From NCBI GenBank assembly GCA_026396065.1, contig JAPLXO010000006.1, positions 1,525 to 65,524 on the forward strand: 64,000 nt of DNA, given 5' to 3'. Below are positions 15,164 through 59,688 of the stretch, piece by piece (position 1 is the stretch's first letter; every line of letters begins with the position of its first letter). The notes beneath the pieces are model-generated. The model saw nothing but the letters and a program-made list of their open reading frames with translations, had not been told where the DNA came from and did no database searches. This stretch comes from Candidatus Nomurabacteria bacterium. Its GTDB lineage: Bacteria; Patescibacteriota; Minisyncoccia; Phycocordibacterales; UBA9973. The translations under genes were made by a program, and so were the position numbers.

Positions 15164-15178
15164 ATGTATGACCAGATT

Positions 15179-43097: not shown

Positions 43098-44159
43098 TTA
43101 TATATTAAATAATGGATTAATAATACCAAGACCAGCCAGCCCTGCCAAGAGTGCAAAGATTCCAAGACCGAGAACAATCACACCTGCGGATTTGAAAAAG
43201 AGTGGCGCGTGTTTGGAATGTGCGAATGATACAGAACTGAAAGAAAGAAGTGCGAGCACAGGCAATGTGCCGAGGGCAAAGGCTAGCATAATTAAAAATC
43301 CAGAGGTAAAAGATCCGCTCGAGAGTGCCGAGACTTGCATTGATTGAGTGAAACCACAAGGCAAGAAAAATGTACCGATACCAATGAGAAGCGGGGCAAA
43401 AGTCGCATGTTCAGCTTTTCGAAAAAAAGAAAATATCCAACTTGGTAGTGTAAGTTTATTTTTTTTGATAATGCCGAGTAAATTTATTCCTAGTAAAATC
43501 ATCACGATAGATGCGATGAGTCCGAGGATTGCCGAGAAAATAAAATTGATGCCGATTGCTTTGCCGACGAGGCCGAGCACTCCGCCGAGTACAGCGAAGC
43601 CGAGCAATCGCCCTGCGTGGAAAAGGATAAAAGGTTTCTTTGTAGATTTTGGATTGCCTTGATCATCCTGCGCGACTTTGGCAGATAAAGAAAGGACCAA
43701 TCCGCCGACAATTGCGAGACAGCTCGAAAGCGAAGCGATAATTCCGATAATAAAACTCGTCGCTGGTGTCGTCTTTCCACCAATACCGAGATTCAAAAGT
43801 CCTGATTTTTGTAATAGAAAAAATAAAACCAAAAATACTAAGCCTATCGGTATAGCTTTCCAAATAACTTCATTATCTTCTTTTGAAGGTTTTCTTGTGG
43901 TGAGCTTGTCGAATCCATCTAGAGATAAAGTGTATTTATTTCCTTTAACTTTTTCATTTAAAATATTTACCAATTCCTCAACTGGTTTTTCACTATCAGT
44001 TTCAATCTCAACTATTTCTTTTTTCAAATCTACTTTCACACTTTTAACTAAAATTTGCTCGGCTTGTGGTGAGCTTGCCGAATCCATCAAAATATCTTCA
44101 ATCAATATCTTGCACGATGCGCAATGCGTCCCCGAAACATGTAATGTGTATTTTTTCAT
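43098..44159 (-). CDS. HMA-domain protein fused to CcdA/DsbD-like polytopic membrane domain
   Basis: N-terminal GTHCASC heavy-metal-associated motif; 6-8 TM C-terminal domain with a Cys pair. Confidence 0.55.
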   Translation of the reverse strand: MKKYTLHVSGTHCASCKILIEDILMDSASSPQAEQILVKSVKVDLKKEIVEIETDSEKPVEELVNILNEKVKGNKYTLSLDGFDKLTTRKPSKEDNEVIWKAIPIGLVFLVLFFLLQKSGLLNLGIGGKTTPATSFIIGIIASLSSCLAIVGGLVLSLSAKVAQDDQGNPKSTKKPFILFHAGRLLGFAVLGGVLGLVGKAIGINFIFSAILGLIASIVMILLGINLLGIIKKNKLTLPSWIFSFFRKAEHATFAPLLIGIGTFFLPCGFTQSMQVSALSSGSFTSGFLIMLAFALGTLPVLALLSFSSVSFAHSKHAPLFFKSAGVIVLGLGIFALLAGLAGLGIINPLFNI

Positions 44160-44166
44160 AAAATTT

Positions 44167-45030
44167 TTAATTAGTTTTTAATTTCAATAACTTTTTTTCT
44201 AAATCTTCTAAATAATAATAAGGTGCTGACTTTAATTTTATTGCCTGTCTAGTTTCTTCAAGAACTAGTTTATTGTTTTTCTTTCCAATTTTTAATAAAA
44301 ATGCAAAAAAAGTACAATTCTCATGTTTTCCTGTTTCTTTTACATTTAACATTTGAATTAAAATTGGTACTAAAATTTCCTTTGGAAACTCTAAAACTTT
44401 TGAAACAAAAACTTCGTCACTAAAAATAGTATCTCCTACATTTTTAATTTTTTCTACACTTTTTTTTAATTCAATAGCTTCTTTTTTAGAAAGTTTATCT
44501 AAATAATTTTTTATATTTATGCTTTTTTGATCAACAAATTCCTTTTCTAAAAGTACAACAACCCATTCTTTAGATAAGTTAACCAAACTATGAAAATTAC
44601 CCCAACCACTTTCTTTAACAACATAAAACCAGTTTTTCCAAGATTTTAATTGACTTTTACAGTATTTTTTAGAAAATCTAGCATAAAGAGAAGTTTTTTC
44701 TGTTGGGATGTTACGAGTTATTGCAAAGTCTAATCTTACTTCTCTGGTAATTGGTTTAAAACCTTTTTTCAACGGATTAATTTTGCCTAAAATTTTTACT
44801 CTTGCTTTTCTAGTTTCAGGATGAGGATTCAATAAATCAATTTCGTCACCAGCAAAACCATAAGGAGGAAATACAATAATTCTTTTTGTAAATTTTGTAT
44901 CTTCAACTTTTAAACGAATAAAAAAACATGCTGGTCTTACAACAATTTCAAAACTTTCTGTGCCAAGAAACTTTTTTACAGTTTCTTTAAATAAATAAGA
45001 CCCAGCAATTTGTTTAAAATTAAATTCCAT
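44167..45030 (-). CDS. hypothetical protein within copper locus
   Basis: 287 aa, no TM, no recognisable motif. Confidence 0.35.
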   Translation of the reverse strand: MEFNFKQIAGSYLFKETVKKFLGTESFEIVVRPACFFIRLKVEDTKFTKRIIVFPPYGFAGDEIDLLNPHPETRKARVKILGKINPLKKGFKPITREVRLDFAITRNIPTEKTSLYARFSKKYCKSQLKSWKNWFYVVKESGWGNFHSLVNLSKEWVVVLLEKEFVDQKSINIKNYLDKLSKKEAIELKKSVEKIKNVGDTIFSDEVFVSKVLEFPKEILVPILIQMLNVKETGKHENCTFFAFLLKIGKKNNKLVLEETRQAIKLKSAPYYYLEDLEKKLLKLKTN

Positions 45031-45033
45031 AAA

Positions 45034-47331
45034 TTATAATTTCTTAACCTTAATTCTAAGTGAATTCGACACGACACTGACACTACTAAAAGCCATTGCG
45101 AGGCCGGCGAAGACGGGGTTTAGGAGCCAGCCGAAGATCGGATAGAAAAGGCCGGCAGCGAGCGGAATGCCTACTATATTATATATGAAAGCCCAGAAAA
45201 GATTTTGTTTAATTCCGCGCATGGTGATTTTCGAAAGTTTGATCGCTTTGACGAGCTTGGAAATATCTCCGTGTAGAAGCGTAATCCCTGCCGACTCGAT
45301 AGCCACATCGGTGCCCGTGCCCATAGCGATGCCGACATCGGCTTGGGCGAGAGCGGGTGCGTCGTTCACACCGTCTCCAGCCATAGCGACGACGCGCCCG
45401 TTATTTTGCAATTCTTTTATCTTCGCGAGTTTGTCCGCAGGCATCACATGCGCCACGACTTCATCGATGCCGACGAGTGATGCCATATATTTTCCAGCTT
45501 TCTCATCATCCCCAGTGAGCATAATTACTTTGATGCCGAGTTTATGCAAATCAGTGATCGCTTGTTTCGATTCAGTTTTTATTTCATCAGCGACTGTGAG
45601 GAAACCAATTACTTCCATTTTTGTAGCGAGAATCACTGGAGTCTTTCCTTGCATTGTATATTGTTCGATTTTTGTCGCGTTAAAATTAATTCCCAAATCT
45701 TTTATCATTTTCACATTGCCGACAAAATATTCTATGCCGTTCACTGTACCCCTAATTCCCTTGCCTTCTATATTTTCAAAATTACTTATTTCTTCTATTT
45801 TTATTTTATTTTCTACTGCGTAGTTCACAATTGCATTTGCAATAGGATGCTCTGACTTTTTTTCTAATGATGCGATGATTGAAATGAATTCAATCTCTGG
45901 CTCCTCAAGGACGGTCCTTAAAGAAGTCCCAAAGGACCGTCCTTTACCCGCCAGTTCGATGTCCACCAATGTCGGCTTACCGATAGTTATCGTGCCTGTT
46001 TTGTCGACAATCACGGTATCAACTTTGTGAAGTTTCTCGAGTGTCGCTGCATCTTTAATTAAAATTCCTTCTTTTGCACCTTTACCGACGCCGACAATTA
46101 TTGCTGTCGGTGTAGCGAGCCCGAGCGCACAAGGGCAAGCGATCACCAGCACGCCAACAAAACACATGAGCCCGTATGAAAGTGCTTGTGAAAAGCCGAG
46201 CGGGCCTGAAGCAAAAAAAAGCCAAGCTCCGAGTGTGATGAATGCAATCACCAAAACAATTGGTACAAAGATTGCCGAAATTTTATCAGCGAGGGCTTGA
46301 ATCGGTGCTTTACTACTTTGTGCTTCTTCAACCATTTTAATAATTTGCGCTAGTAATGTTTCCCCTCCGACTTTTGTCGCTTTGAAATTAAAAGTGCCTG
46401 TGGTATTTATCGTCCCTGCCACGACATTATCCCCAATATTTTTCTTCGCTGGCATCGGCTCACCCGTCACCATTGATTCGTCGACAAAAGAATTCCCTTC
46501 TACAATAGTTCCGTCCACTGGAATTTTTGCTCCAGGTTTAATAATAATTATATCGCCATGCACAACTTCGTTTACAGAAATTTCAATTTCTTTTCCATCA
46601 CGAATAACGAGCGCGGTTTTTGCTTGTAAATTTAAAAGTTTTTCTATTGCATCCCCTGTTTTTAATTTCGAACGAGTTTCTAAATATTTACCAAGGGCAA
46701 TAAAAGTGATGACAATAATTGTGACGTCAAAATATGTCACGCCAACATTTGGAAAATCTTTTAATAAAGTTTCTTCAAAAGCACCTACCATGAAACTGTA
46801 AAAATAAGCGACAGAGGTTCCAAGTCCTATCAATGTATCCATATTCGCTTTACCTGTTTTTAGGAAACGATAAAAACCTTGTAGATAAGGTTTACCTACC
46901 ACAAAGAGCATATACGTCGCCATCAAAGGCAAAAGATGATGGAAAAATTCTTCCCAAACTAAAGGCATACTATACTGTGTTTTGAATTGCGCCAAAATAT
47001 CCCAAGTCATGACAAAAACACTAATTACGGCGAGTGGAATTGCTGAAATAATTTTTATCTTCATATCTCTAAGTTCTGCCAACTTTTCACTTTTACCTGT
47101 AGCAAGAACCGTTCTTGCTACAGGAATAATTAGAGAGTAGCCAAGTGACTCGAGTTTTGTATTTAAACTTTCTGGATTTGTTTTACTTTCATCATAAGAG
47201 ATTTTTGCACTTTCTGTTCCAGTGTTTACAGAGATTTCTTGCACGCCATCAATTTTCTTCACAGTTCTCTCGATAATACTAGCGCAAGATGCACAGTGCA
47301 TGCCTTTTACTTTATAAGTTTTATTTTGCAT
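45034..47331 (-). CDS. copA: copper-translocating P-type ATPase
   Basis: N-terminal HMA GMHCASC; TM CPC motif (ACPCALGLATP); DKTGTIT phosphorylation site; GDGVNDAPAL. Confidence 0.9.
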   Translation of the reverse strand: MQNKTYKVKGMHCASCASIIERTVKKIDGVQEISVNTGTESAKISYDESKTNPESLNTKLESLGYSLIIPVARTVLATGKSEKLAELRDMKIKIISAIPLAVISVFVMTWDILAQFKTQYSMPLVWEEFFHHLLPLMATYMLFVVGKPYLQGFYRFLKTGKANMDTLIGLGTSVAYFYSFMVGAFEETLLKDFPNVGVTYFDVTIIVITFIALGKYLETRSKLKTGDAIEKLLNLQAKTALVIRDGKEIEISVNEVVHGDIIIIKPGAKIPVDGTIVEGNSFVDESMVTGEPMPAKKNIGDNVVAGTINTTGTFNFKATKVGGETLLAQIIKMVEEAQSSKAPIQALADKISAIFVPIVLVIAFITLGAWLFFASGPLGFSQALSYGLMCFVGVLVIACPCALGLATPTAIIVGVGKGAKEGILIKDAATLEKLHKVDTVIVDKTGTITIGKPTLVDIELAGKGRSFGTSLRTVLEEPEIEFISIIASLEKKSEHPIANAIVNYAVENKIKIEEISNFENIEGKGIRGTVNGIEYFVGNVKMIKDLGINFNATKIEQYTMQGKTPVILATKMEVIGFLTVADEIKTESKQAITDLHKLGIKVIMLTGDDEKAGKYMASLVGIDEVVAHVMPADKLAKIKELQNNGRVVAMAGDGVNDAPALAQADVGIAMGTGTDVAIESAGITLLHGDISKLVKAIKLSKITMRGIKQNLFWAFIYNIVGIPLAAGLFYPIFGWLLNPVFAGLAMAFSSVSVVSNSLRIKVKKL

Positions 47332-47335
47332 AAAA

Positions 47336-47599
47336 TTATTTTCTTTTAAGCTGATACACTTTTAAAATTTCACCGACAGCTTTCGCTGTCTGTCCTTTTT
47401 TAATTTGATCAATAGCACAACAACCTAAATGATTTTCGAGTAATACATCTTCGATATTTGAAAGACCTTGCTTCACTGCAGAAGTTTGCGTAATCACATC
47501 AATACAATATTTATCTTTTTCTATCATATCTTGCAACCCCCTCACCTGCCCTTCAATTATTTTTAATCTACGTATTATTTTTTGTTTATCTTTATGCAT
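47336..47599 (-). CDS. csoR: CsoR/RcnR-family metal-sensing repressor
   Basis: RLKIIEGQVRGLQDMIEKDKYCIDVITQ...HLGCC with the conserved Cys/His ligand positions. Confidence 0.75.
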   Translation of the reverse strand: MHKDKQKIIRRLKIIEGQVRGLQDMIEKDKYCIDVITQTSAVKQGLSNIEDVLLENHLGCCAIDQIKKGQTAKAVGEILKVYQLKRK

Positions 47600-47608
47600 A
47601 TTTATAGT

Positions 47609-47626
47609 ATACCCCCTGGGGGGTAT
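47609..47626. promoter_or_regulatory. candidate CsoR operator (GC-rich inverted repeat)
   Basis: ATACCCCC-tg-GGGGGTAT 10 nt upstream of the csoR start; matches the TACCC..GGGTA type of known CsoR operators. Confidence 0.55.
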
Positions 47627-47710
47627 TAATGCAAGTCTATAAAAATATGGCTGTGGAAAACAAACAAAGCCGGAGATAAAATCTCCGGCTTGTTACAATT
47701 ACATTAATAA

Positions 47711-48565
47711 TTACTTCTTCCTTTTAAAATTGGAATCGTAATTAACTACAGATACCTTCCTGCTAACCTCATAAAACAATACAGCTTCCTGTTGATAATA
47801 TTCAGCTGTAAAATCCACGATTTTATTAATCTGCTTTTCAGTACAAAGAAGTTTTACAGGAATCATGCGTTCCTGATAGGTTATACCCTCTTTGTTTACC
47901 CAAGTACCACGGGTGGGATTTTCGATTGTTAATCCCTTTGTAATCTTTTGAACAAATTGGTCCCATTTTTTATGGTACTCAACTTCAACCTTCACATGAT
48001 TGTTGAAATGAGTTGGAACAAGAATTTCCCAAAGAACTTTTTCTGGCCTTCTGGAAGAAAGAAGCTTCTCGTTTAATTTTTTAAGAACAACCATAGGCAC
48101 TAAATGAGAAACAATTTTTTTCCAAGTTGGATCAATTCCAACCAAACTTTTTACAATTGAAGAGCTAATCGCCTTAAATTCAGGTAAACAGTGTACGAAA
48201 ATTGTCTCAACTTGAGGACAAATTTTTCTGTTTATTGCAGCGATTATTTCTTCATCAAGTAAATCTTTGTCACTTCTGATTCCACGGATTGTTTTCTTTG
48301 CACCTAAAGAGTAGGTGTATTTTACAGCATAATGATTTTTTAAAATTTCAACGCTGACATTAAATATGTGAGCGACAGATTTTTTAATCATATCTACCCT
48401 CTCTTCTGTGTTAAACAAAAATGTACTTTTCTTGTCCTGATTTACAGCAACAAGAATTATAAATTTATCATAACGTGGTGCCATCCTTTGTACTATATCT
48501 AAATGACCATTTGTAAAAGGATCAAAACTTCCAGTGAAAGTTGCTATTCGATTTTTAGGTTTCAT
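47711..48565 (-). CDS. coaD: phosphopantetheine adenylyltransferase (CoaD) fused to ~120-aa C-terminal domain of unknown function
   Basis: GSFDPFTNGHLDIV HxGH nucleotidyltransferase motif in the first 160 aa; an uncharacterised domain follows. Confidence 0.65.
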   Translation of the reverse strand: MKPKNRIATFTGSFDPFTNGHLDIVQRMAPRYDKFIILVAVNQDKKSTFLFNTEERVDMIKKSVAHIFNVSVEILKNHYAVKYTYSLGAKKTIRGIRSDKDLLDEEIIAAINRKICPQVETIFVHCLPEFKAISSSIVKSLVGIDPTWKKIVSHLVPMVVLKKLNEKLLSSRRPEKVLWEILVPTHFNNHVKVEVEYHKKWDQFVQKITKGLTIENPTRGTWVNKEGITYQERMIPVKLLCTEKQINKIVDFTAEYYQQEAVLFYEVSRKVSVVNYDSNFKRKK

Positions 48566-48589
48566 TATATATTAATTTAAATTTATACT

Positions 48590-48636
48590 CAGTGAATTAC
48601 TTCAATTTCCATATAGAAAAACAAAGTAATTCACTG
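48590..48636. other. perfect 13-bp inverted repeat in the coaD upstream region
   Basis: CAGTGAATTACTT-(21 nt)-AAGTAATTCACTG. Confidence 0.4.
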
Positions 48637-48771
48637 AAATACAATAAAAATCAAATACAACAAAGAACATACTATTAACAGCATAATATCATTATTATTA
48701 AAAAAGTCAATTTAAGTTAGATTAGAAAAATAGGGTTGTTTTTTATTGAAATTCTGCTAAAATAGTTTTAT

Positions 48772-48899
48772 TCGGGAGTTGGCAAGCGGTGGAGTGAGCT
48801 TGGGATGGGACCCAGGCGCAAGGCCGGAGCGCGACGGCGCGAGGCAAGGCTATAGAATTTTTCAGTAGAAAAATATCTGGAGCGTCGCCTGTTAATCTG
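48772..48899 (+). repeat. tRNA-associated GC-rich structured repeat, copy B, embedded in a degenerate tRNA-Asn-like leader
   Basis: 5' end TCGGGAGTTGGCAAGCGGTGGAG mimics the tRNA-Asn acceptor/D arm; core GCCGGAGCGCGACGGCGCGAGGC (48823-45); AT hairpin ATTTTTC-agta-GAAAAAT (48857-74); 3' end GTCGCCTGTTAA mimics the Asn anticodon arm; extended -10 TGCTAAAAT at 48755-63. Confidence 0.5.
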
Positions 48900-48919
48900 A
48901 ATAAAAAATGTAAAAACAT

Positions 48920-48991
48920 TCGGGAGTAGCTCAGCGGTAGAGCGGTCGCCTGTTAAGCGATTGGTCGTAGGTTCGATCCCTACCTCCCGAG
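48920..48991 (+). tRNA. tRNA-Asn (anticodon GTT)
   Basis: Acceptor TCGGGAG/CTCCCGA, D-arm GCTC/GAGC, anticodon loop CTGTTAA, T-loop GTTCGATC. Confidence 0.85.
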
Positions 48992-50662
48992 CATCGTAGA
49001 AAAAACAGAGTTAAACAGCTCTGTTTTTTCTTTTGAGCTTTTGTACACAACACAGTTTTTAGGTTCGAACTTCATGTTTTCTTCTTTTGCATGTTTGATA
49101 CCTTCAACGAGTTTGTTTACTGCAATACTGTTATGAATACTAAGTATTTCTTCATTCCAAACTAGGTTCGAACCAAGTTCTGATAACATTAATCTTTTTG
49201 TTTTTATTCCTCCAATTTCAAGATTTTCTTTAAGACAAGTAGTTAGATCAACAATTTTATTCATTTTAGAATACCAATCAACAGTTATCTTTTTCTCTGT
49301 GAGAGAATATCTTTTATTTAAAGATTCTAGGTCAGTTTTGTATTCTTCATTTGTAATTTGTTCGTCTCTAAGCATTGCACGAAGTCTTGTTTTTTTAGAT
49401 TCATATTCTAAATTGTCTATGGCTTCTTTTTCTTTTTTAAATACAACTTCATTTATTTCTTTATTTTTTAACTCAGTTATATATTGTCTTGACCAATCTG
49501 CTAATTCTTTAGAAAAGTTTAGATTACTGTCAACAAAACTGATTAATTCTTTAGATATAGTTACATCTGAAATAGAATTATATTTTTCTTTGTTTTTCTT
49601 TTTCTTAACATTATAGTAATAAGTAAAACTAAGATATTTAGGATTTTCTAACTCGGTAATTTTCCTTGCACATTTAGGGCAATGTGTTTTGTCTCTGTAG
49701 GCAAATTTAAATTTACAATCACATATGAGTTGAAACTTCACATCTTGTCCCATAGAGTCTTCTTTATCTGACTTTAAAAAACCTGAAAAAACTGTTTCAT
49801 GATGTTGAATCTTAGGAATGTTTTTACCAGAAAGAATTATTTTTATTTTGTTGTGTTGGTCCTCGGTAATAAGTCTAGGAAGTTTATTATCAAGCTCGTA
49901 TCTTTGTCCTCCTTGGAAGAAAAAACCAGCATATATAGGGTCTTTCAAGATTTCGTATATACGAGAAGGAGTAATTAAAGCCCCGCCAATTCTCTTTCTT
50001 TTTACAGTAGTTAATCTCATTTCTCTAACAGCGTACCTGTATAATTTTCCAGCTGAGTAGGTTCCTGTTAAAAACATATCGAAGAGTTTCTTTAGTGATT
50101 TTATTTTTACCTCATCTACCAACCAATCTCTGTTTCCTTTTTCTTCTGTTTTGTCATTTAAAAATCCTAAAGAAGCACAGCCGTGAGGAATACCCATACG
50201 TGCCTTTTTTTCTTGACCCCTTTTAACATTTATGGAAAGTTCTTTAATAAATTGTTTACCTTGACTGAATTCTATTGAAAGGACCATAACATTATCCCAA
50301 GGATAAAAAACTTTATCATGAGTAATAATTGCTTTTATAAAACCAGAACTCAAAAGATCAATTATCTTACCTCCCTCAGTCATATTTCTAGCTAATCTAT
50401 CAGCTTTCCAACAAACAATTGAATCTATTTCTCCTTTTTTTATCATTGACATCATTCGAGAGAACTCAGGTCTTATGCTTGCTGTTTTAGCTGATTTTGA
50501 TTCTTTAAATACCTCAACAAAAGGAGAAAGTTTATAATACTCTGATATTCTTTTAGCTTCATCAGTTTGAGAGTCAATAGAAAGCATTTGCTTATCTTCA
50601 GACTCTGAAGATTTACGGTTATAATTTCCTGGCTTTAATTGTGTAAAATCTATTGTATTCAT
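48980..50662 (-). CDS. large serine recombinase (phage-type serine integrase)
   Basis: N-terminal resolvase catalytic domain (LSIDSQ serine region, WKADRLARN); recombinase domain; zinc ribbon CDCKF...CPKCARK; C-terminal coiled coil; 560 aa; stop codon lies within the tRNA-Asn 3' end. Confidence 0.85.
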   Translation of the reverse strand: MNTIDFTQLKPGNYNRKSSESEDKQMLSIDSQTDEAKRISEYYKLSPFVEVFKESKSAKTASIRPEFSRMMSMIKKGEIDSIVCWKADRLARNMTEGGKIIDLLSSGFIKAIITHDKVFYPWDNVMVLSIEFSQGKQFIKELSINVKRGQEKKARMGIPHGCASLGFLNDKTEEKGNRDWLVDEVKIKSLKKLFDMFLTGTYSAGKLYRYAVREMRLTTVKRKRIGGALITPSRIYEILKDPIYAGFFFQGGQRYELDNKLPRLITEDQHNKIKIILSGKNIPKIQHHETVFSGFLKSDKEDSMGQDVKFQLICDCKFKFAYRDKTHCPKCARKITELENPKYLSFTYYYNVKKKKNKEKYNSISDVTISKELISFVDSNLNFSKELADWSRQYITELKNKEINEVVFKKEKEAIDNLEYESKKTRLRAMLRDEQITNEEYKTDLESLNKRYSLTEKKITVDWYSKMNKIVDLTTCLKENLEIGGIKTKRLMLSELGSNLVWNEEILSIHNSIAVNKLVEGIKHAKEENMKFEPKNCVVYKSSKEKTELFNSVFSTMLGR

Positions 50663-50853
50663 ATTGTTCTTCTATTTTATCATATTTTAATTTTTAAGTT
50701 TTCAGCCAAAGTATTAAGCAATAAAGATCCAATTTCGTTAATTTCTTGGTCGGAAAGAGAACTTCCAAAAACCTCTCCATATGATTTTTGGAGTGCAATT
50801 CTTAGATCTATTATTGCTTGTTTACTTAGCTGGAGAGGCATAAAGAATTTTAA

Positions 50854-53379
50854 TTAACTAGTAATTTCTTCATCCTCTTCGTCATCATCGATAGCGGCAC
50901 TTGTTCCTTCAATAACGCTTTTTAATAGGGACAGAGACTCCTTAGGGGGTACAGGGGCATTTAAAATGTTTGCAAATTCTTCAACCAAGAAATATAAGTA
51001 TGGGGCTTTTCCTGACTTATATGTCTCTAAATCTTTATAACAATCAAGTATTCCAAGTGCTTCTAATTCTTTTAGTGTTCTACGAATAGTTTTTGAAGAT
51101 TTTTTTATCTCTTTAGCAAGATCTGATGCTGAAAGACCACATTTAACTGTAAGTACTTTTAAAACTTCTGCTCGATCAACAGGCATAGTTGATAAAATAA
51201 CAGGTTTGATTGTTTTTATTTCTTCTTCAGTTATATTTTGTTGTCCATTTATAAAACACAATATTCGAAGTAAGGATTTTAATTGATTTAAAATTCTCCA
51301 AGGATGCTCTACTTGCCAGTCTTTTATTTCATAGAATTCAATTTTTTGACCCTTTTCATTTTCAAAAGTTGATTTACTGGTAATAGCAATACCACGAGCC
51401 TTACAAATAAACTGCGCAACGGAATTAATTTTATTTTGAATTTCTTTTGTTTCTGGTAGATTTTTATGTTCTTCAATCTTTTTAACTAATTGTGTTGCAT
51501 ATGAAGAAATAAGATGTCGAGTTTTTAAAACCTTTTCTTTTCGATTTGGCTCATTCCACGACTTATCAAATCCTACTGCCATTTCTTTTTCAGTTAAATC
51601 TGAAAGGCGTAAAAATAAGAATCGAGGACCAAGTTGTGTAGCGTAATTATAGTGTTTAATTAAAATAGAAGGAGTAATACATCCAATCATAGAAAAAAGA
51701 GAATGATATTCAACAAGACCTCTCGTTGCTGTGAATTTTTGGAACTTCCCGTCAAAAATACTAGTAAGATCTCCTAGAATCTTTTTTACCATTTCTTCAT
51801 TCATTGAAAACAAAGTGTTTAAGTCTTTTATGATAAAAGACTTATTATCAAGTAAAGGAAGTAAGTCTTGTGTTTCTGAACCGTCTGGAGGTACATATCC
51901 AGAACAAAAAGCATTTTCTGTAAGAGTATCTAATGTATAAACATCATCCATATCACTATAGAGTCCAACCAATTCAGTTTTAAAAGAAGATGGCACTCCT
52001 ATAAGAAATAACCAAAGTGGAGAACTAAGGCGCAACTGAGCTGATATTATTACTGCAGTTACTATTTTTAATGTTTCTTTATTTACTATCCCTATTTCCA
52101 ATACAGCATCATATGCCTCCTGGAAGTCTATGTCCCTATTAAGAATTAATGGTATTTTCTCTTCTTCTTTTTTTGCCTTTAATTGTGCTTGAAAAGATTT
52201 TATTCTTAAACTATTTACATAAGGAATATATTTTTTGGCATCTTCTTTTGTAATACCAAAATACTCTTTAATGTTGTGTCCAATAAAGATTTCTGCTGTT
52301 ATTTTATTAATCTCAATGAGTTTATTAAAAACAGGGCTAAGTACCTCCATTAATTTTAACTTTGGTGTATCTGACGGTATTTGTTTTAATATTTCCTCTA
52401 TTTGTTCTATTGAGACTGATTCTTCTTCTTTTTTAGAGATATCTTCCGGGTACATTTTTATAACAGCTTTTGCTGCGGCTTTAAAGTCCCCACTATGATT
52501 TAAAAAAGTAAATGTAGTAAATTTAGAATAACCTTTATTGGCTTGAAAAGGATGAGCGGATGTAGAAAATACATAAAACATAGAAATATCTCCATGATCT
52601 GTTGTAGCTGATATTCCTTGACCTTTTTCTTTGCCAGGTCTACGCCAATAGTTTTTACCTTCTTCTATCCATCCGTGTGGTTCTAATATCTCGTTCCAAG
52701 TAGCTTTCTTGTTAAATTTATCACCAGGACGATTCCCTGAAAGTGGCTCTCCTTGTTTCCACTCATATTCAGTTGCAGGTTCATCTTCAACTTCATTAAA
52801 GACTCTTAATAGATCAATTAATTCTTCGTGTATCTCGTCTGGTATTATAGGTAAATCTAAAAGACTTCCTTGTATAGTTGTATAACCACTTGAAGGTGGA
52901 ATAAGAGCATACCCACCATTGGCTTTTGTTTCTGCTGTTGTTACAATAATTCCTTTATTTTCTTTTTCATTAAATTCCACTCGTCGAGCAAGTTTTACTG
53001 TTGGCTGTGTTGTTTCTGTTCTATAACGTAAGTGAGTTCCTTTGTTTCTAGTAGTATTCTTGTGACACAAATCAACAAACTTTTTTTGTTCGTCTGAAAG
53101 CTTGTTATACCAGAGATCATACAATCCTGTATAATGCTTTTCGTCAAAATCCAAAGTGACTAGATTGTCGGAAACTTTACCTCCAGCAATAGCCCAAGAA
53201 GTAACACCTGCTTCAACCCATTTTTTAGCTTCTTCTTCTGTAGCTTTTGTGTATAAAAATTCATGTTCGTGATCTTTACTAAGACACACTGAATGTGGTC
53301 TCTTATCTCCTTCAGTAATTGGTATCACTGAAAGATTTGAATTAACTAATTTTATAATATATTCGTTTTGATTTTCCAT
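50854..53379 (-). CDS. replication protein: N-terminal bifunctional primase-polymerase (Prim-Pol) domain, helicase/DUF-like C-terminal region, wHTH near C-terminus
   Basis: NLVTLDFDEKHY and TRNKGTHLRYR (Prim-Pol core); RPGDKFNKKATWNEILEPHGW...WRRPGKEKGQGISATTDH (phage/plasmid primase region); 841 aa. Confidence 0.7.
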   Translation of the reverse strand: MENQNEYIIKLVNSNLSVIPITEGDKRPHSVCLSKDHEHEFLYTKATEEEAKKWVEAGVTSWAIAGGKVSDNLVTLDFDEKHYTGLYDLWYNKLSDEQKKFVDLCHKNTTRNKGTHLRYRTETTQPTVKLARRVEFNEKENKGIIVTTAETKANGGYALIPPSSGYTTIQGSLLDLPIIPDEIHEELIDLLRVFNEVEDEPATEYEWKQGEPLSGNRPGDKFNKKATWNEILEPHGWIEEGKNYWRRPGKEKGQGISATTDHGDISMFYVFSTSAHPFQANKGYSKFTTFTFLNHSGDFKAAAKAVIKMYPEDISKKEEESVSIEQIEEILKQIPSDTPKLKLMEVLSPVFNKLIEINKITAEIFIGHNIKEYFGITKEDAKKYIPYVNSLRIKSFQAQLKAKKEEEKIPLILNRDIDFQEAYDAVLEIGIVNKETLKIVTAVIISAQLRLSSPLWLFLIGVPSSFKTELVGLYSDMDDVYTLDTLTENAFCSGYVPPDGSETQDLLPLLDNKSFIIKDLNTLFSMNEEMVKKILGDLTSIFDGKFQKFTATRGLVEYHSLFSMIGCITPSILIKHYNYATQLGPRFLFLRLSDLTEKEMAVGFDKSWNEPNRKEKVLKTRHLISSYATQLVKKIEEHKNLPETKEIQNKINSVAQFICKARGIAITSKSTFENEKGQKIEFYEIKDWQVEHPWRILNQLKSLLRILCFINGQQNITEEEIKTIKPVILSTMPVDRAEVLKVLTVKCGLSASDLAKEIKKSSKTIRRTLKELEALGILDCYKDLETYKSGKAPYLYFLVEEFANILNAPVPPKESLSLLKSVIEGTSAAIDDDEEDEEITS

Positions 53380-53380
53380 A

Positions 53381-53450
53381 CCTGTTTGCTGTCTCTCATG
53401 ACGACCTCGGATAGCAAACAGGTGAGTTTTTATCCGAAGTCATCATGAAA
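53381..53450 (+). promoter_or_regulatory. overlapping inverted repeats with plus-strand terminator-like hairpin abutting the replication-gene start
   Basis: CCTGTTTGCT(53381-90)/AGCAAACAGG(53414-23) then TGAGTTTTT; alternative stems CGGATA/TATCCG and TCATGACGAC/GTCATCATGA. Confidence 0.4.
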
Positions 53451-53601
53451 AACAAATTAAATTTTTAAGCTTCTTCTGTGAAAGAATTACTTTTAATTTT
53501 AAACTTTAGGAAAATCATAAAAATATTACACTTTGTGACAAATAAAAAAATACCCCTATTTTGCAGAGTATTTTTAAGTAAACAAAATCAATATTCCCAG
53601 T

Positions 53602-54411
53602 TTATTTCTTTTTTGTGAATTGAATCATAAACCTAGGATTTAAATGATAGCCACGTTTGGGTTCATTTTTTATAAAATCATCAATGCTTGTTTTTCCTTT
53701 CACTATTAACTTTTTAATTTCGTTATTTATTGAGCTAATTCTGTTTTTTATATTTCCCATAGATGTAGCAAACTCTTTTGCTAGTATTTCTTTTTTGAAA
53801 CAATAATCCTTATCTTTCATATATTTGTAATATAAAAAGTGTATGATCTGTTTATCGGTGTTGTTAATTTTTTGTGATTTTTTTTTCTTATAGACAAGGT
53901 AATTGCCTTGTATTTTAATATCTAACGTTCTTAAATCTATTTCCTCTGTCATTTCAACCTCTTTAGTTCTATCGGAATCATTCCCTAGTAAATACTCTTC
54001 CATTGATTTACGTAAAATATCGTATTTTTCTTCTGTGTTTTCAAGTAGAGTATTTAGCTTATTTTTAAACTTCTTCCAAAGTTCTAAATTGTTCACTCGG
54101 ACATCTGGATGTAAAACTAAAAAATGATGTTTTGGGTTTACACGGAAAAAACATTCCACTATAAAAGTGTCTAGTTTATCGATCTCTTTATAAAATTTTA
54201 AGTGACCTGACATAAGATTTTTATCGTTGAAAGATAATCCGAATTTCCTTACATATTTTAAATATTCTCTTAAATAAATTAAATCATCTCCCTTTATCAT
54301 GTTTTGGTCTAGTGACGGAAATATACTTTCAGCTAATGTGTCTGGAAATAAAGCAAGAAATTTATTTATTTTTTCTTCATCTTTTTTCATACTATAAATT
54401 AAGTATATCAA
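53602..54411 (-). CDS. putative transcriptional regulator with C-terminal OmpR/PhoB-type winged helix
   Basis: C-terminal 80 aa (KQIIHFLYYKYM...ILAKEF...NIKNRISSINNEIKKL...KRGYHLN) fits the trans_reg_C pattern. Confidence 0.4.
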   Translation of the reverse strand: MIYLIYSMKKDEEKINKFLALFPDTLAESIFPSLDQNMIKGDDLIYLREYLKYVRKFGLSFNDKNLMSGHLKFYKEIDKLDTFIVECFFRVNPKHHFLVLHPDVRVNNLELWKKFKNKLNTLLENTEEKYDILRKSMEEYLLGNDSDRTKEVEMTEEIDLRTLDIKIQGNYLVYKKKKSQKINNTDKQIIHFLYYKYMKDKDYCFKKEILAKEFATSMGNIKNRISSINNEIKKLIVKGKTSIDDFIKNEPKRGYHLNPRFMIQFTKKK

Positions 54412-54522
54412 AAAAGAAGACTTTTAATCAATTTTCACAGTTTTAAAGGTAAGAGAATATTAAAAAATATCGATGTCCTTCCTTCACCCTCCCATCTAAA
54501 TGCTACTTTTCTAATATTTATA

Positions 54523-55257
54523 CTAAATATACTTACTTCGTTGTCTATTCCAATTAGAGATGATCTCTCTTTTACTGTTCCTATTCTCATGCTTTCTACG
54601 AATAGTATTAGCCTTATACTTCAGCCTTTCGATCCTAATAGCTCTTTTGGTAAGCATTCCCTTGTATAACGGCCTTTTGGTGCTCAAAATAGCATTTCTT
54701 AGCTTATTATTCAAATCCATTTCCTTTCCTAATTGGTCCACTTTGTTGTTCCTATTGAAATTAGATACCTTATATCTCAAATGCAAACATGATTTACATT
54801 TAAACTCTGTTCCATTAGAAGGAAGGAATAACTTCGCCGCCCTATAACCGCATTCACATCTAAAGAGTGTTCTTTCGCCATAGCGTAAATATACAGTAGT
54901 CAGCACTATTCTTTGTGGTTCATTATTCACTACACTTACAGTTAAAAACGTGTCAGCCTCGTATTCAGGCCAAAAGTAGACTACTGATCCCTTGTTAGTC
55001 GTAAACATATCATTTATATATTCCTTTTTACGTATTTGAGCAAAGACCCCCTTAAGCTTTTTAGAGTCTAGTATTACACAATCTTCAACGAATATTTTGT
55101 TACTTGTTGTCGGCATTATATGTGTATTATCCCATAAGTCTTTAGATTGGACCAAAATATTGAATTTTTTTAGAAAAAATTTTAGAGGGTCAACGATTTT
55201 TAAAAGGAGAATAATTCCAAATATTGGTTTTTCTTCCCAGCTAGCGATAGGTATCAT
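54523..55257 (-). CDS. hypothetical protein with Cys4 zinc-ribbon-like motif
   Basis: CECGYRAAKLF...CKSCLHLRY; basic C-terminus. Confidence 0.35.
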   Translation of the reverse strand: MIPIASWEEKPIFGIILLLKIVDPLKFFLKKFNILVQSKDLWDNTHIMPTTSNKIFVEDCVILDSKKLKGVFAQIRKKEYINDMFTTNKGSVVYFWPEYEADTFLTVSVVNNEPQRIVLTTVYLRYGERTLFRCECGYRAAKLFLPSNGTEFKCKSCLHLRYKVSNFNRNNKVDQLGKEMDLNNKLRNAILSTKRPLYKGMLTKRAIRIERLKYKANTIRRKHENRNSKREIISNWNRQRSKYI

Positions 55258-55553
55258 ACCCTAGATGGTACCTTGACTGACCTGTATTAAAAGGAACAAC
55301 CCCCCAATACCCCATATACCCACTTGTCACTTACTTCATTATCATACCAACCCAACACTAGTCATTAGTTTATTGTTATTAATATAGCCGTCATGTATAT
55401 ATAAATATTACAGTCATACTATCTAACATTATTACTACTTACTTTACTTAATTACAAAGAAAACTATTTTTTAGGATTGAAATTATACATCAATCCTTTT
55501 TAGCTTATCTAGTCCATAAGCTTTTTATTATTAACCATTATTAATTAAATCAA

Positions 55554-55871
55554 ATGCAAAGCGTAAAAGAATTTATGGAAGCCCCTGTGTCCTCATTTAC
55601 AGGATCTGAAGTAACAAAAAAGCTAATGGAAGAAGCTATTATTTCTCGATACGGAAGAGCAGAATTAAAAAATTTGGACTGCTACCATACCATGAGAACA
55701 TTCCATTCCTGGGTGAAGTTAGGTTTTAAGGTTCGTAAAGGAGAAAAAGCATTTAAATCAATTACATATATCGAGGTAAAAGATAGTGCTGGAAATGTGA
55801 TAAGGAAGATAAAGAGACCTTGCTTTCTATTTTATTACAAACAAATCGAGCCGATTTCTAAAACTGTATGA
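55554..55871 (+). CDS. hypothetical protein
   Basis: 105 aa; first gene of a 4-gene plus-strand operon with 4-nt overlaps. Confidence 0.35.
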   Translation: MQSVKEFMEAPVSSFTGSEVTKKLMEEAIISRYGRAELKNLDCYHTMRTFHSWVKLGFKVRKGEKAFKSITYIEVKDSAGNVIRKIKRPCFLFYYKQIEPISKTV

Positions 55872-56050
55872 AAACTCAAATGACAATTTCTTCTCAATAC
55901 AGAGAAAGAAAATCAAGAGACTTAGATATAGTTCCAAAGCTTGTTATAGCTAACCACTTTTTGAAAAATATCAGTGGTCTTTCGGTCTCAGATAGAATTA
56001 CAGTCGAGTATCTAAAGGAGGGTCAGATCATTATTACTAAATTAACATAA
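55868..56050 (+). CDS. small hypothetical protein (possible AbrB/MazE-like swapped-hairpin)
   Basis: 60 aa; PKLVIANHFLKNISGLSVSDRITVEYLKEGQIIITK resembles a SpoVT/AbrB-type domain; weak. Confidence 0.3.
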   Translation: MKTQMTISSQYRERKSRDLDIVPKLVIANHFLKNISGLSVSDRITVEYLKEGQIIITKLT

Positions 56051-56054
56051 ACAT

Positions 56055-56600
56055 ATGATAGATAATTATAAAAACAGTGTTCCTTCGCCTTATGGTAAAA
56101 CACAGGAGAAGAAAAGTCCTATACAAGAAGAATTAGATAAAAGTATTGGCACATTCAATCTTACAGCTATAGTAAAAGAAGATACTGACACGGCCAGTCA
56201 GCTTAGTCACATACCTGGACTAATCTCATTAATCTGTACACTTAAGCTTGGAGATAAAGTAATAGGTATTGGTAGAGGTAGTGCAACATTAAACCGCATG
56301 AATCGAGTTGTAGAGCGTGGAGTGAGATATAGCTTTGGCAATGCTTTAGTTGATGCAGTGGTCCGAGGAGTTAAAAACCTTGACACTTTATATTTCCAGT
56401 CAACTAATCAAGGAGAAAATAATTTTACTTCAAGTGGTGTTCTAGAAGACGAGCCAGCCTCTGATAAACAGAAGTCGTATTTACAGAAACTCATAACCCT
56501 AAACATTACAGATATAAAAGAACGTAATAAGTGGGAATTGGAACTCAATCAGCTAACGAAGAATCAAGCTTCAGACAAAATCAAAGCTCTTATTAATTAA
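56055..56600 (+). CDS. hypothetical protein
   Basis: 181 aa; no recognisable motif. Confidence 0.35.
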   Translation: MIDNYKNSVPSPYGKTQEKKSPIQEELDKSIGTFNLTAIVKEDTDTASQLSHIPGLISLICTLKLGDKVIGIGRGSATLNRMNRVVERGVRYSFGNALVDAVVRGVKNLDTLYFQSTNQGENNFTSSGVLEDEPASDKQKSYLQKLITLNITDIKERNKWELELNQLTKNQASDKIKALIN

Positions 56601-56610
56601 AATAATCATT

Positions 56611-56844
56611 ATGAATACAGTTATAAAAAATCGTGATAGATCTATTCGAGATTATAATTTCTTTATGGAAGATACTGATGAGCCAGGAATGGCTACAAGT
56701 ACACAAAAACGTACTCTCAAAGATTTAATAGTTCAAAATATCGACGATAGTGAAAAACAAGAGATATGCATTAACCAAATTCGAGATATTTCGCAAGACG
56801 AAGCATCTTTGTGGATAAGGGAGATGGAAAACGGTCTTTGGTAG
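56611..56844 (+). CDS. hypothetical protein
   Basis: 77 aa acidic protein. Confidence 0.3.
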   Translation: MNTVIKNRDRSIRDYNFFMEDTDEPGMATSTQKRTLKDLIVQNIDDSEKQEICINQIRDISQDEASLWIREMENGLW

Positions 56845-56846
56845 TT

Positions 56847-56899
56847 AAAAGGAAGGAAGTAATGCTAGGTACTTAGCAAAACTACCTTCCTTTTTTATT
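56847..56899 (+). terminator. rho-independent terminator of the 55554-56844 operon
   Basis: Perfect 10-bp stem AAAAGGAAGG/CCTTCCTTTT plus T-run. Confidence 0.65.
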
Positions 56900-56925
56900 T
56901 GGTCCTAAAATGCTATGCTTTAGGA

Positions 56926-57060
56926 GTACCCGCATTAAATAATGTCAGTTAAAAGTCCCTTAAATAGGGCTGAGTTTCCATTTGTGTACTGAAAGGGCAA
57001 CCTTGATGCGCATAAGTGGAAGCTTCGGCTGACATTAATGCGGGTACCATCAGGTTGCCC
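56926..57060. other. complex interleaved inverted-repeat structure (candidate ori/att site or structured RNA)
   Basis: IR1 GTACCCGCATTAA(ataa)TGTCAG (56926-48) / CTGACATTAATGCGGGTAC (57029-47); IR2 GGGCAACCTTGATG (56995-57008) / CATCAGGTTGCCC (57048-60), interleaved with IR1. Confidence 0.5.
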
Positions 57061-57104
57061 TTTTCTATGTTATCTGATGATTATTATTTTAACTAATAAT
57101 TTTC

Positions 57105-57989
57105 ATGAAAAAAAAACAATTACCGTTAGTTATTGTTATTGTTTTATTAGTTGTTCCACTAGTTGCTATAAGTGCATGGTGGAATCCTTTTCATTGGTTC
57201 AAGAAAAAAGAGATTCAAACTCCAGTAGTTCAGACCTTGGTCCCTATTGTTGTAAACGATAAGACCGTTTTAACTTCAAAAGAAAGTTCTACTATTCAGA
57301 CTGACTCAACTTTAGATTACACAACAACTACTGCATTTAAAAATTCTGTCTTTGCAGATCCTGGTATATTTCCTTTACTTGATACTACAATATATCTTTC
57401 TGGTGATGAAAGTGTTGTTAGGTCACGAGATGGACAGATAATACTACCAGTAAAATATGATTACAACCAATCAATCACAGCAATAGATACATTCTTACTA
57501 AATCAAACACTAGAGACTTTTAAAACATTTTGCAATAAAGCAAAAGAGTTACCTAGTATAGGTCAGAAGAAAGTTCTTAATGATACAAAGACGGATTTTA
57601 TTATGAAAGATAATACTTTGTATGACGATTATAATTTAGGAAAGTTATGTACTATCGCTCTTGGTCAAGATAAAAATTCATCTTATTATAAATGGACAAC
57701 ATATAGCCCCTCTTATTTTGTTACTTTTGATAATCCTAATGAGTCAGACAAAGCTAGAACACTTAAAATAAATTACAATGCTTTTTGGAAAAGTTTATCA
57801 GATTACAAATTAATAGGATTTGATATTTGGCAAAATAAAGATGCGGTTACCCCTAATCAAGTAATAGATAAAATGGTTAGTGTTAATAATGAGGCGTTAT
57901 TTTTTACCACTTTTAATAATGGCTTCTTTCTTGTGCCAGAAAAAATATTATCAAGTATCGAAGGACAGCTTAAGGTACATAATAAATAA
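57105..57989 (+). CDS. hypothetical secreted/membrane-anchored protein
   Basis: 294 aa, N-terminal signal-anchor. Confidence 0.4.
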   Translation: MKKKQLPLVIVIVLLVVPLVAISAWWNPFHWFKKKEIQTPVVQTLVPIVVNDKTVLTSKESSTIQTDSTLDYTTTTAFKNSVFADPGIFPLLDTTIYLSGDESVVRSRDGQIILPVKYDYNQSITAIDTFLLNQTLETFKTFCNKAKELPSIGQKKVLNDTKTDFIMKDNTLYDDYNLGKLCTIALGQDKNSSYYKWTTYSPSYFVTFDNPNESDKARTLKINYNAFWKSLSDYKLIGFDIWQNKDAVTPNQVIDKMVSVNNEALFFTTFNNGFFLVPEKILSSIEGQLKVHNK

Positions 57990-57994
57990 AATAT

Positions 57995-58870: not shown

Positions 58871-59457
58871 AATATATGGAAAATAAAAAAGAAGAAGTTA
58901 CTAAAGGAAATAGTTTTAACCTTATTGTTATTATGATAATAGTATTTATAGGTTTTGCGATTTTTTTGAATCATAACGTTAAAAATTCTGACACTAAAGA
59001 TTCAACTGAGCCAAATAAAGCTCAAGTTGAAAATAAATTAAGTATTAATACAGATGAAACAAATATTAATACAAATGAAGCACAAGTAAAACCTAATTTA
59101 GAAATTACATATGATATGTATCAGAAAATTATAGATAAAATAAAATCGAGTCCAAATCAAGAAATTATTTCAGACAAATCTTTAGAGATTAGTGGAATGT
59201 CAATTGCTCTTATGTATGCTATGTATCAAAATCATTTAATTATTACAAGTACTATTACAAATAAAGAAACAGGAGTAAAAGAACCGAGTGCTAGTTTTAT
59301 TGACGAAGATTTAGATGGTTATCCTGATTCTTGGGTAGATGAAGGTAGTAATCAAAGAAATTTATTTGATAAAAATAGTCCTGAATATAATGATATTTCT
59401 CATCGTATTTGGGCTTCTTTTTTAGCATTTTTTAATAATAACATTCTTAATAATTAA
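58855..59457 (+). CDS. hypothetical membrane-anchored protein
   Basis: 200 aa, one TM. Confidence 0.35.
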   Translation: MDKKLKYMENKKEEVTKGNSFNLIVIMIIVFIGFAIFLNHNVKNSDTKDSTEPNKAQVENKLSINTDETNINTNEAQVKPNLEITYDMYQKIIDKIKSSPNQEIISDKSLEISGMSIALMYAMYQNHLIITSTITNKETGVKEPSASFIDEDLDGYPDSWVDEGSNQRNLFDKNSPEYNDISHRIWASFLAFFNNNILNN

Positions 59458-59461
59458 ATTT

Positions 59462-59683: not shown

Positions 59684-59688
59684 AAATA

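Follow-up and report, generated by a model that had tools for sequence, protein, structure and literature searches.

A small GC-rich structured element beside tRNA genes of Patescibacteria, with one copy set in a partial duplicate of tRNA-Asn

In the 64,000-nt stretch of a Candidatus Nomurabacteria genome analysed here (contig JAPLXO010000006.1, hereafter the window), the gene for tRNA-Asn is preceded by a GC-rich repeat that is enclosed by two fragments of the same tRNA. This repeat belongs to a family, here named E, of short, non-coding, many-copy elements of the lineage. We judge that E moves, or once moved, as DNA: its copies occupy hairpin loops and the centres of palindromes, foremost in or beside tRNA genes, and it is seen to persist at tRNA genes only where an intact tRNA remains. 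On balance, we lean towards the view that E is a small (about 100–130 nt), non-coding, GC-rich, mobile palindromic element that has spread within Patescibacteria, is co-transcribed with its tRNA or rRNA operon and is removed during ordinary end processing.

Results

A 5' portion of tRNA-Asn is duplicated and interrupted by E

The features of the locus are listed below by window position. The core was delimited by a covariance model, R1, run on the window with filters off; the rows for the P1 strand and the spacer were read from the sequence.

48755–48763, + strand: TGCTAAAAT, extended −10-like motif, putative promoter of the leader and tRNA-Asn (sequence evidence only)
48770–48794, + strand: partial 5' duplicate of tRNA-Asn, positions −2 to +23 (alignment and direct repeat)
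48779–48790, + strand: 5' strand of the closing helix P1, pairing with 48884–48895 (11 pairs including four G·U, one A·C mismatch)
48795–48822, + strand: 5' module of the long form, comprising junction UGAG, hairpin P1a (48798–48804 with 48811–48817, loop AUGGGA) and junction GCAAG
48819–48884, + strand: E core of copy B, comprising P2 and P3 (R1 78.2 bits, E value 4e-19)
48880–48895, + strand: copy of tRNA-Asn positions 21–37 (end of the D-stem, 5' strand of the anticodon stem, anticodon loop to position 37), which doubles as the 3' strand of P1
48896–48919, + strand: A-rich spacer of 24 nt between element and tRNA
48920–48992, + strand: genuine tRNA-Asn(GTT), called by ARAGORN and by Rfam (RF00005, 70.6 bits); CCA not encoded

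The element at this locus, copy B, lies between two pieces of the gene that it precedes. Its 5' flank, TCGGGAGTTGGCAAGCGGTGGAG (48772–48794), aligns without gaps to positions 1–23 of tRNA-Asn with 18 of 23 bases identical (score 13), a score reached by 6 of 2000 dinucleotide shuffles. Its 3' flank, which includes GTCGCCTGTTAA (48884–48895), matches positions 21–37 at 16 of 17 positions with one gap (score 14; 1 of 2000 shuffles as high). Against the seven other tRNAs of the window the two flanks score 5–9 and 4–9, respectively. The two matches are colinear, and an independent repeat search returned the 5' piece as direct repeat D19 (48770–48794 against 48918–48942, 80% identity over 25 nt).

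The first-pass annotation of this DNA had proposed that a tRNA-Asn 5' half was duplicated and disrupted by the repeat. The sequences that it quoted sit where it placed them, alignment puts both flanks above the shuffles and above the other seven tRNAs, and the layout is borne out across family members that lie upstream of their tRNA (30 of 37 among the matches listed). Two of its figures needed correction: the distance from element to tRNA-Asn, given as 20 nt, is 24 nt (48895 to 48920), and the two copies that it counted in the window are three according to R1, the one it lacked being copy C (below). Its suggestion of a functional tRNA mimic is not supported. The 3' half is missing, and neither ARAGORN nor Rfam, even at E values up to 10, calls a tRNA in the pseudo-tRNA at 48772–48899. 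Moreover, the D-arm-like bases have been re-paired with the anticodon-arm copy: this segment differs from the real tRNA-Asn at five positions, and four of the differences create such pairs.

The matches are short (23 and 17 nt), which is the one point in favour of a chance resemblance between a GC-rich repeat and tRNA-Asn, to which we assign a negligible probability. The shuffles, the far lower scores of the other tRNAs and the family-wide pattern of the flanks rule it out: copies A and C of the window stand in the same relation to their own tRNAs, as do about 115 other tRNA-linked copies among the matches listed.

Two further copies in the window adjoin tRNA genes

R1 locates three cores in the window, at 4350–4415 (copy A), 48819–48884 (copy B) and 15106–15173 (copy C), adjoining tRNA-Trp, tRNA-Asn and tRNA-Lys, respectively. 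Three copies therefore fall within 64 kb, and about three of the eight window tRNAs carry one.

4326–4427, + strand: copy A, 3' of tRNA-Trp (4211–4282); core 4350–4415, R1 88.3 bits, beginning 68 nt after the tRNA
15060–15178, + strand: copy C, divergent, between tRNA-Lys(CTT) (14994–15067) and tRNA-Leu(TAG) (15179–15261); core 15106–15173, R1 52.5 bits, E value 4e-12

The flanks of copy A are taken from tRNA-Trp on both sides. Positions 4326–4352 are antisense to tRNA-Trp 52–72 plus five trailer bases (22 of 27 positions; 0 of 2000 shuffles), and positions 4415–4427 are a direct copy of the T-loop and the 3' side of the T-stem (12 of 13; 3 of 2000 shuffles). The antisense arm and the intervening terminator-like hairpin form one long inverted repeat. 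One double change, C-G to A-U, keeps P1 and departs from the tRNA-Trp sequence. In copy C, the 3' end and trailer of tRNA-Lys are mirrored at 15093–15108 (inverted, 15 of 16; 0 of 2000 shuffles), and the P2 stem is GGCAC/GUGCC rather than GCGC/GCGC.

Both arrangements recur elsewhere. The order Lys–E–Leu is found again in loci L145 and L102 (loci from the searches are denoted by L numbers). L014 has a syntenic tRNA-Trp copy with miaA on the same contig; L009, L064 and L083 likewise combine a tRNA-Trp copy with a nearby miaA, with MiaA identities of 39–85%.

E shows the covariation and strand bias of a conserved structured RNA

The minimum-free-energy fold predicted for copy B closes the element (−52.7 kcal/mol, z −3.8, 0 of 200 shuffles). 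In this copy, P2 consists of 48823–48825 with 48843–48845 plus 48829–48832 with 48837–48840, around candidate tandem G·A pairs, and P3, an AU-rich hairpin, consists of 48849–48863 with 48868–48883. The family follows the same plan. In a core alignment of 51 sequences (A2), P2 comprises helices of 3 bp and 4 bp that enclose an invariant GGA/GAGG, with loop GNCG. The 16 bp of P3 form a hairpin that carries a bulged A and whose upper part, AUUUUUC/GAAAAAUA, is nearly invariant. The long form, to which copy B belongs, adds GUGAG, P1a and CGCAAG; in 53 copies P1a has a median of 7 bp and several pair types per position. The closing helix P1 shows at least eight uninterrupted pairs at the junction in 33 of 99 copies, compared with 4 in a displaced control. 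On this model, E is predicted to fold as a junction of three or four helices.

Comparative evidence for the fold is strong in both pairing and strand. Within A2, 97.3% of cells are paired, double-sided changes occur in 15 of 23 pairs, and none of 500 shuffles scores as high; when the alignment was slid as a control, only 37–53% were paired. The core helices contain 79 G·U against 3 A·C, and P1 contains 59 against 9; one G·U is retained in 42 of the 51 sequences. This excess indicates that the fold has been selected on the tRNA-sense strand. In compensatory change and strand specificity, E has the marks expected of a conserved structured RNA.

Known RNA folds were also considered. By eye, the order of helices does not fit a nested pseudoknot of the hepatitis delta virus type, and the CUGANGA core of the hammerhead is missing; the Rfam models for twister, pistol and hatchet gave no match to E. 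Reading GCC[G]GA...GAGGC as a K-turn is a partial fit only, with a 1-nt bulge and a C-G second pair, and this part of P2 was kept as a candidate tandem G·A.

The family is widespread within Patescibacteria

A search pattern was built from the core common to copy B and the tRNA-Trp copy (repeat D8). It matched at least 220 times, in 213 loci from metagenomes and Patescibacteria metagenome-assembled genomes (MAGs). The pattern is present in 92 metagenome loci, many of them from 0.1-µm groundwater fractions, and in at least 119 loci of GTDB species genomes. Among the matches listed, every GTDB locus with a taxon in its title is from Patescibacteria (Nomura-, Yonath-, Taylor-, Vogel- and Zambryskibacteria, Paceibacterota, Minisyncoccia, and third-party annotation records labelled Saccharibacteria). 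As far as these scans show, E is confined to Patescibacteria (the candidate phyla radiation, CPR). Applied to 663 kb, R1 returned 142 hits, about 40 of them beyond the pattern, with clusters that include five hits in 8 kb (L117) and five in tandem (L167).

The family does not correspond to an entry in the resources searched. Rfam 15 returned no family for E, either for copies A and B at E values up to 10 or for 32 related loci at the gathering threshold; all matches in the latter were to tRNA, to rRNA or to a single group II intron. Weak Rfam matches to Transposase-2, miRNA and STnc families represent terminator-type hairpins or noise. The pattern had no match in IMG/VR viral contigs, which lends no support to a viral origin, and a search of the published literature that included sequence strings found no description of E.

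E is co-oriented with tRNA genes and flanked by their fragments

Among the matches listed, 121 of 220 lie within 300 nt of a tRNA, and 120 of these 121 share its orientation; the tRNA is upstream of E in 82 cases and downstream in 38. Many tRNA species accompany the element. The divergent copies added by R1 lie, in the mapped multi-copy loci, mostly beside co-oriented tRNAs as well, apart from clusters such as L117. In 23 of 94 loci E keeps the orientation of the tRNA where the neighbouring open reading frames (ORFs) lie mostly on the other strand. The orientation bias is therefore tied to the tRNA and not to the direction of replication, and replication strand was ruled out as its main cause.

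The flanks follow two rules according to which side of the tRNA E occupies. In upstream-type copies, the 5' flank scores on average 23.9 against the adjacent tRNA and 8.9 against control tRNAs, with a score of at least 12 in 30 of 37 copies. This direct copy spans about −9 to +1 through 24–25 in most of the cases listed, and the 3' flank often copies tRNA positions 27–35/44. These extents place E at about position 25/26 of a truncated 5' tRNA duplicate, a rule that copy B fits. In downstream-type copies, the 3' flank is a direct copy (13.6 versus 6.4 in controls) and the 5' flank is antisense (11.5 versus 6.6). The direct copy runs from the T-loop (about 54–58), or covers the last few bases only, to the 3' end of the tRNA and sometimes past it, as in L013, where a direct repeat of 30 nt passes the 3' end. 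Among the antisense arms are exact reverse complements of 12–18 nt; in L124 the inverted repeat extends over 25 nt with one indel.

The double change in copy A, together with the D-arm substitutions in copy B, shows selection for self-closure of the element. When each tRNA was compared with both of its arms, antisense and direct, the 16 loci that passed an ungapped filter gave 9 compensated and 7 uncompensated double changes, a result that is suggestive only.

A second element, E2, has an unrelated core, roughly GAAGMCCTTGAGT...CGCACGGARCAAAGCGAGTACGRTAC...GGTGTACAG...CTGTAAGG, and flanks of the same kind, taken from the T-arm of the neighbouring tRNA in antisense and in sense. E2 gave no Rfam match. 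It was found at the following sites:

L145, 530–640 and 880–960: E2
L012, L197 and L030: E2 in the flanks
L063 and L068: antisense piece after E

E occupies insertion sites in elements, genes and rRNA

Several copies show E as an insertion in other sequences. In L053, a second E is nested in the P3 loop of the first, and the corresponding elements of L005, L075 and L189 lack the insert. Tandem arrays occur in L167 and L015. L059 (372–760) has, after an ordinary 5S rRNA, another 5S-like copy, and this one bears an antisense E in loop C and a divergent sense E. Elsewhere, E lies within perfect inverted repeats of 20–25 bp whose sequence is unique to each locus (L033, L073, L131, L173 and L194).

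Essential protein-coding genes also harbour copies. In L131 (3700–3830), E is inserted in-frame in murC and adds 36 aa (e.g. ...DIRSAAARGRGIF...). This insert is missing from eight MurC homologues with 59–75% identity and from the solved MurC structures in the PDB; in another homologue, P0013, an E-like peptide of a different kind is present close to the N-terminus. E also lies inside the reading frames of uvrC (L171, 7100–7240) and of pheT (L085, 2030–2130, antisense). Presence and absence at homologous sites were thus demonstrated for the MurC insert and the nested copy in L053. The sites of E include the T-loop, loop C of 5S rRNA and the P3 loop, with a P1 helix; where E accompanies a tRNA, the copy that hosts it is a truncated duplicate.

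Promoter motifs and the putative transcript

The extended −10 motif noted in the first-pass annotation, TGCTAAAAT, is indeed present at 48755–48763, as a motif only. A sigma-70 scan of the spacer called a promoter on the minus strand alone; the scan needs a −35 element, which is why no + strand promoter was called at this position. From its place between the −10-like motif and the tRNA, copy B could plausibly act as a leader. In L203, an upstream-type locus, a full TTGACC-17-TATAAT promoter stands upstream of the pseudo-tRNA. Hexamers resembling a −10 occur upstream of 32% of pseudo-tRNAs, 32% of plain tRNAs and 56% of real tRNAs, a profile that is uninformative in AT-rich DNA.

The spacer from 16S rRNA to tRNA-Ile contains E in four rRNA operons (L142, L137, L150 and L068), where it is presumably transcribed with the operon. 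This location and the co-orientation with tRNAs are indirect evidence of transcription. In the spacer of L068, from a Patescibacteria rRNA operon, Rfam also places a domain of a group II intron (D1-D4-1, 44 bits) at 1075–1188, upstream of the E copy.

Discussion

The favoured reading and what weighs against it

The data show the membership of the family, its fold, its association and shared orientation with tRNAs, the tRNA origin of the flanks and insertions at other sites; the mode of movement, transcription, processing and any benefit to the host are inferred. If E is a mobile element removed during tRNA processing, as we lean towards, events at the tRNA-Asn locus might proceed as follows. 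Transcription would start at or near the 5' end of the pseudo-tRNA, from what was probably the original tRNA-Asn promoter, and the leader of about 150 nt would fold into a four-helix junction (P1, P1a, P2 and P3). P1 would be built of the tRNA-derived flanks, so that these fragments would be kept from mispairing with the real tRNA. A cut by RNase P at 48919/48920 would then free the tRNA, and the leader would be discarded. For the origin of the arms, folded single-strand recombination, template switching around hairpins and a guide-like mechanism are candidates.

Several observations weigh against this reading. The core is near-identical across genomes whose MiaA proteins share only about 50% identity, and the tRNA-Trp copy, with miaA nearby, has been retained in them. 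Under genome streamlining, purely selfish DNA would be expected to degrade or to be deleted through recombination of its direct repeats, so that such retention argues for a function at the level of the host or of the RNA. No empty site was recovered for the tRNA-Asn locus, since the flanking 284-aa ORF has no close orthologue. In place of constant terminal inverted repeats and a target-site duplication, the arms vary from copy to copy and match the local sequence, and no transposase, recombinase or reverse transcriptase was linked to E in the locus flanks examined. The extended −10 motif of copy B lies in a spacer of 32% GC and is weak evidence, the promoter being a motif only. Many downstream-type copies have a terminator-like hairpin between tRNA and E, and co-transcription is not assured for them.

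Alternative explanations

Core conservation and retention at syntenic sites are the reasons for keeping in play, as a possible but clearly less probable explanation, that E is a host-functional structured RNA, either a protein-binding scaffold or a tRNA-specific regulator acting in cis or in trans. Its 5' arm, antisense to the tRNA (from the T-loop to the 3' end, or the anticodon arm), and its 3' arm, acting as a decoy, could control the folding, processing or turnover of that precursor. Such a role would account for junction and loop bases that are near-invariant over a phylum-scale range (GGA...GAGG, GNCG, AUUUUUC/GAAAAAUA, the bulged A and the kept G·U), for the persistence of copies at two settings, next to tRNA-Trp close to miaA and in the Lys–Leu tRNA interval, and for a strict co-orientation with the tRNA whatever the strand of the neighbouring gene. 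The sense-strand G·U excess, the perfect antisense arms of 14–18 nt that persist despite a decayed direct copy (L124, L197 and L122) and the presence of E at about three-eighths of the window tRNAs point the same way. It fits poorly with the insertion-like sites, namely the in-frame copy in murC, the uvrC and pheT frames, the nested copy, both orientations in the 5S pseudo-copy and terminator-like hairpins; with the double change in copy A, which favours self-closure over pairing with the tRNA; and with the fact that no partner protein is known. A further proposal, which we consider rather unlikely, is that E is an arm-programmed guide, either a self-targeting mini-element or a regulator. The copy-specific 5' arm, exactly antisense over 12–18 nt (25 nt with one indel in L124) to the adjacent tRNA or to local sequence, and the conserved junction, as RNA or as folded single-stranded DNA with a protein, would direct insertion into that tRNA gene or else binding and control of that tRNA.

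Two explanations invoke a recombinase. The one that we regard as improbable treats E with its arms as a miniature integrative element whose recombining form is a folded single strand. A tyrosine recombinase encoded elsewhere and acting in trans would insert the element in the T-loop, at the 3' end or at position 26, and the antisense/sense tRNA hairpin would mimic a double-stranded tRNA segment, by analogy with CTX phage attP or integron attC. The layouts (full tRNA, element, partial tRNA) match a single crossover of a small circle that carries a tRNA segment beside E, the direct repeats that continue beyond the 3' end of the tRNA (a 30-nt repeat in L013) point to an event at the DNA level, and the strand-specific, G·T-tolerant hairpins are compatible with single-stranded DNA. 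The junctions in the T-loop agree as well: the anticodon loop and the T-loop are reportedly, from work by Williams in 2002, the crossover sites of integrases that target tRNA genes. Against these points, no recombinase is linked to E in the loci searched, the unit is only about 130–200 nt long, the insertions in murC, 5S loop C and the P3 loop have no tRNA-like target, the orientation of E follows the tRNA and not the gene strand (a proxy for replication direction), and circular forms were not observed. Very improbable, in our estimate, is the suggestion of the first-pass annotation that the pseudo-tRNA is an integration or excision scar, here taken as an att-site scar of the serine recombinase/PrimPol element at 48980–53379. 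These genes do lie immediately 3' of tRNA-Asn, and contig L001 ends inside the tRNA at 48947, a hint of a polymorphic junction. E, however, stands upstream of the tRNA, on the far side from the recombinase element; tblastn found no homologue of the recombinase or PrimPol in the 92 metagenome E loci; and the window holds no second 3' fragment of tRNA-Asn. Serine integrases have a 2-bp crossover and would not leave duplications of 20 nt, and the supposed scar contains a conserved folded core that is found hundreds of times elsewhere.

Comparison with known elements

A close parallel is provided by the Rickettsia palindromic elements (RPEs), which Ogata et al. reportedly found in 2000 both between genes and in-frame in protein genes. 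Like E, RPEs are about 100–150 bp long, non-coding, self-complementary and multi-copy in a reduced-genome lineage, occur in-frame in genes that remain unharmed, and have no linked transposase; by analogy, the insertion behaviour of E matches theirs. Unlike RPEs, E has a conserved multi-helix core with RNA-type covariation, and about half of its copies lie within 300 nt of a co-oriented tRNA. Its arms are inverted and direct copies of the local target, whereas RPEs, compared by description, have not been described with tRNA-derived arms.

Two kinds of mini-element of fungal mitochondrial DNA, the GC clusters (PMC4478555) and the double-hairpin elements, invite a similar comparison. Both fungal types resemble E in being GC-rich hairpins in very AT-rich genomes, in being mobile with no enzyme of their own, and in inserting into each other, into variable regions of rRNA and between genes. 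They differ in belonging to another domain of life and in their much smaller length of 30–80 bp, and they are not known to show a conserved three- or four-way junction, tRNA co-orientation or tRNA arms.

Intervening sequences (IVSs) of bacterial 23S rRNA are stem-loops at the tips of native hairpins with a long closing helix; they are co-transcribed, excised by RNase III without religation, and sporadic in distribution. E may resemble them in its sites at hairpin tips of stable RNAs and in its closing helix. An IVS interrupts a functional rRNA, whereas E at tRNAs sits in a truncated duplicate beside an intact gene. In CPR rRNA genes, a survey of short insertions records no 5S insertion of at least 100 bp and does not mention tRNA (PMC11270868).

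Partial tRNA duplications are said, following Williams in 2002, to mark the ends (attL/attR) of integrative elements such as phages and integrative and conjugative elements. The order of full tRNA, insert and partial tRNA is common to these and E, and so are downstream repeats that begin at the T-loop and can pass the 3' end. E differs in that the insert is only about 110–160 nt, lacks an integrase and carries an extra antisense tRNA copy, and in that the segment duplicated in upstream-type copies is the 5' part of the tRNA, within which E lies. REP/REPIN sequences, associated with RAYT transposases, are short, palindromic, non-autonomous repeats that are kept for long periods in bacterial chromosomes and are thought to act as single-stranded hairpins; E is longer, branched and tRNA-linked, has target-derived arms, and was seen with no RAYT or HUH gene. 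Finally, MALAT1-mascRNA, tRNA-snoRNA units and the 3' external transcribed spacer of leuZ are RNAs released by tRNA-type processing. E is comparable in being structured and in directly adjoining, on the same strand, a tRNA (in their case also a tRNA-like unit); one of its ends would then be set by RNase P or by RNase Z. Those RNAs are not multi-copy insertions and contain no tRNA fragments, and in E the processing is inferred.

Significance

The genomes of Patescibacteria are among the smallest and most streamlined of any bacteria, yet in this window some three-eighths of the tRNAs carry a near-invariant folded element of 100 nt that is assembled around pieces of the tRNA in question. If E is selfish, it would be a gene-less parasite that survives in a minimal genome by hiding in tRNA units and in reading frames that it leaves unbroken, and it would mislead tRNA, pseudogene and protein annotation of CPR MAGs, for example through 'RSAAARGRGIF'-type inserts in predicted proteins. 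If E is functional, its invariant core and tRNA-specific arms would point to a new RNA-protein system for individual tRNAs, and the guide reading, if true, would amount to a new nucleic-acid-guided system in minimal-genome bacteria. The family is a candidate Rfam entry and a marker of Paceibacteria-type genomes.

Neighbouring genes and additional observations

Upstream of tRNA-Asn, three genes lie on the minus strand: an ORF of 284 aa whose product has a cytidylyltransferase domain at its N-terminus, and the genes for a CsoR repressor and a copper ATPase. The protein database contains an exact match to the 284-aa product, from a Candidatus Nomurabacteria MAG and labelled pantetheine-phosphate adenylyltransferase; the next-best orthologue is weak (43% identity over 57% of the query). 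In Logan contigs, the exact protein occurs only in short contigs of the same sample. The copper ATPase/CsoR segment (window 45000–47000) has a GC content of 40–43%, compared with about 32% elsewhere, and may have been acquired horizontally.

Downstream of tRNA-Asn lie a large serine recombinase with Resolvase and Recombinase domains (48980–50662) and then the PrimPol gene. The recombinase ORF, a mechanical call on the minus strand, crosses the terminator-like hairpin 3' of tRNA-Asn, and its stop codon falls within the 3' end of the tRNA (48980–48992). Adjoining copies B and A, short-read contigs of the same sample (Logan SRR20698644) break inside tRNA-Asn and tRNA-Trp: L001 covers window 48566–48947, and L002 begins at window 4233. 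These breaks are consistent with repeat-induced assembly breaks or with population variation.

Among the related loci, ARAGORN called some unusual tRNAs: a tRNA-Ser with anticodon ACT in L086, L095, L178 and L188, and a tRNA with anticodon TTA ('Stop') in L117 (7127–7200). Over window 44000–60000, the cumulative GC skew reaches a minimum near 55–59 kb and rises thereafter, with nearly all ORFs to the left of the minimum on the minus strand; this minimum could mark a replication origin or reflect an effect of the integrated element.

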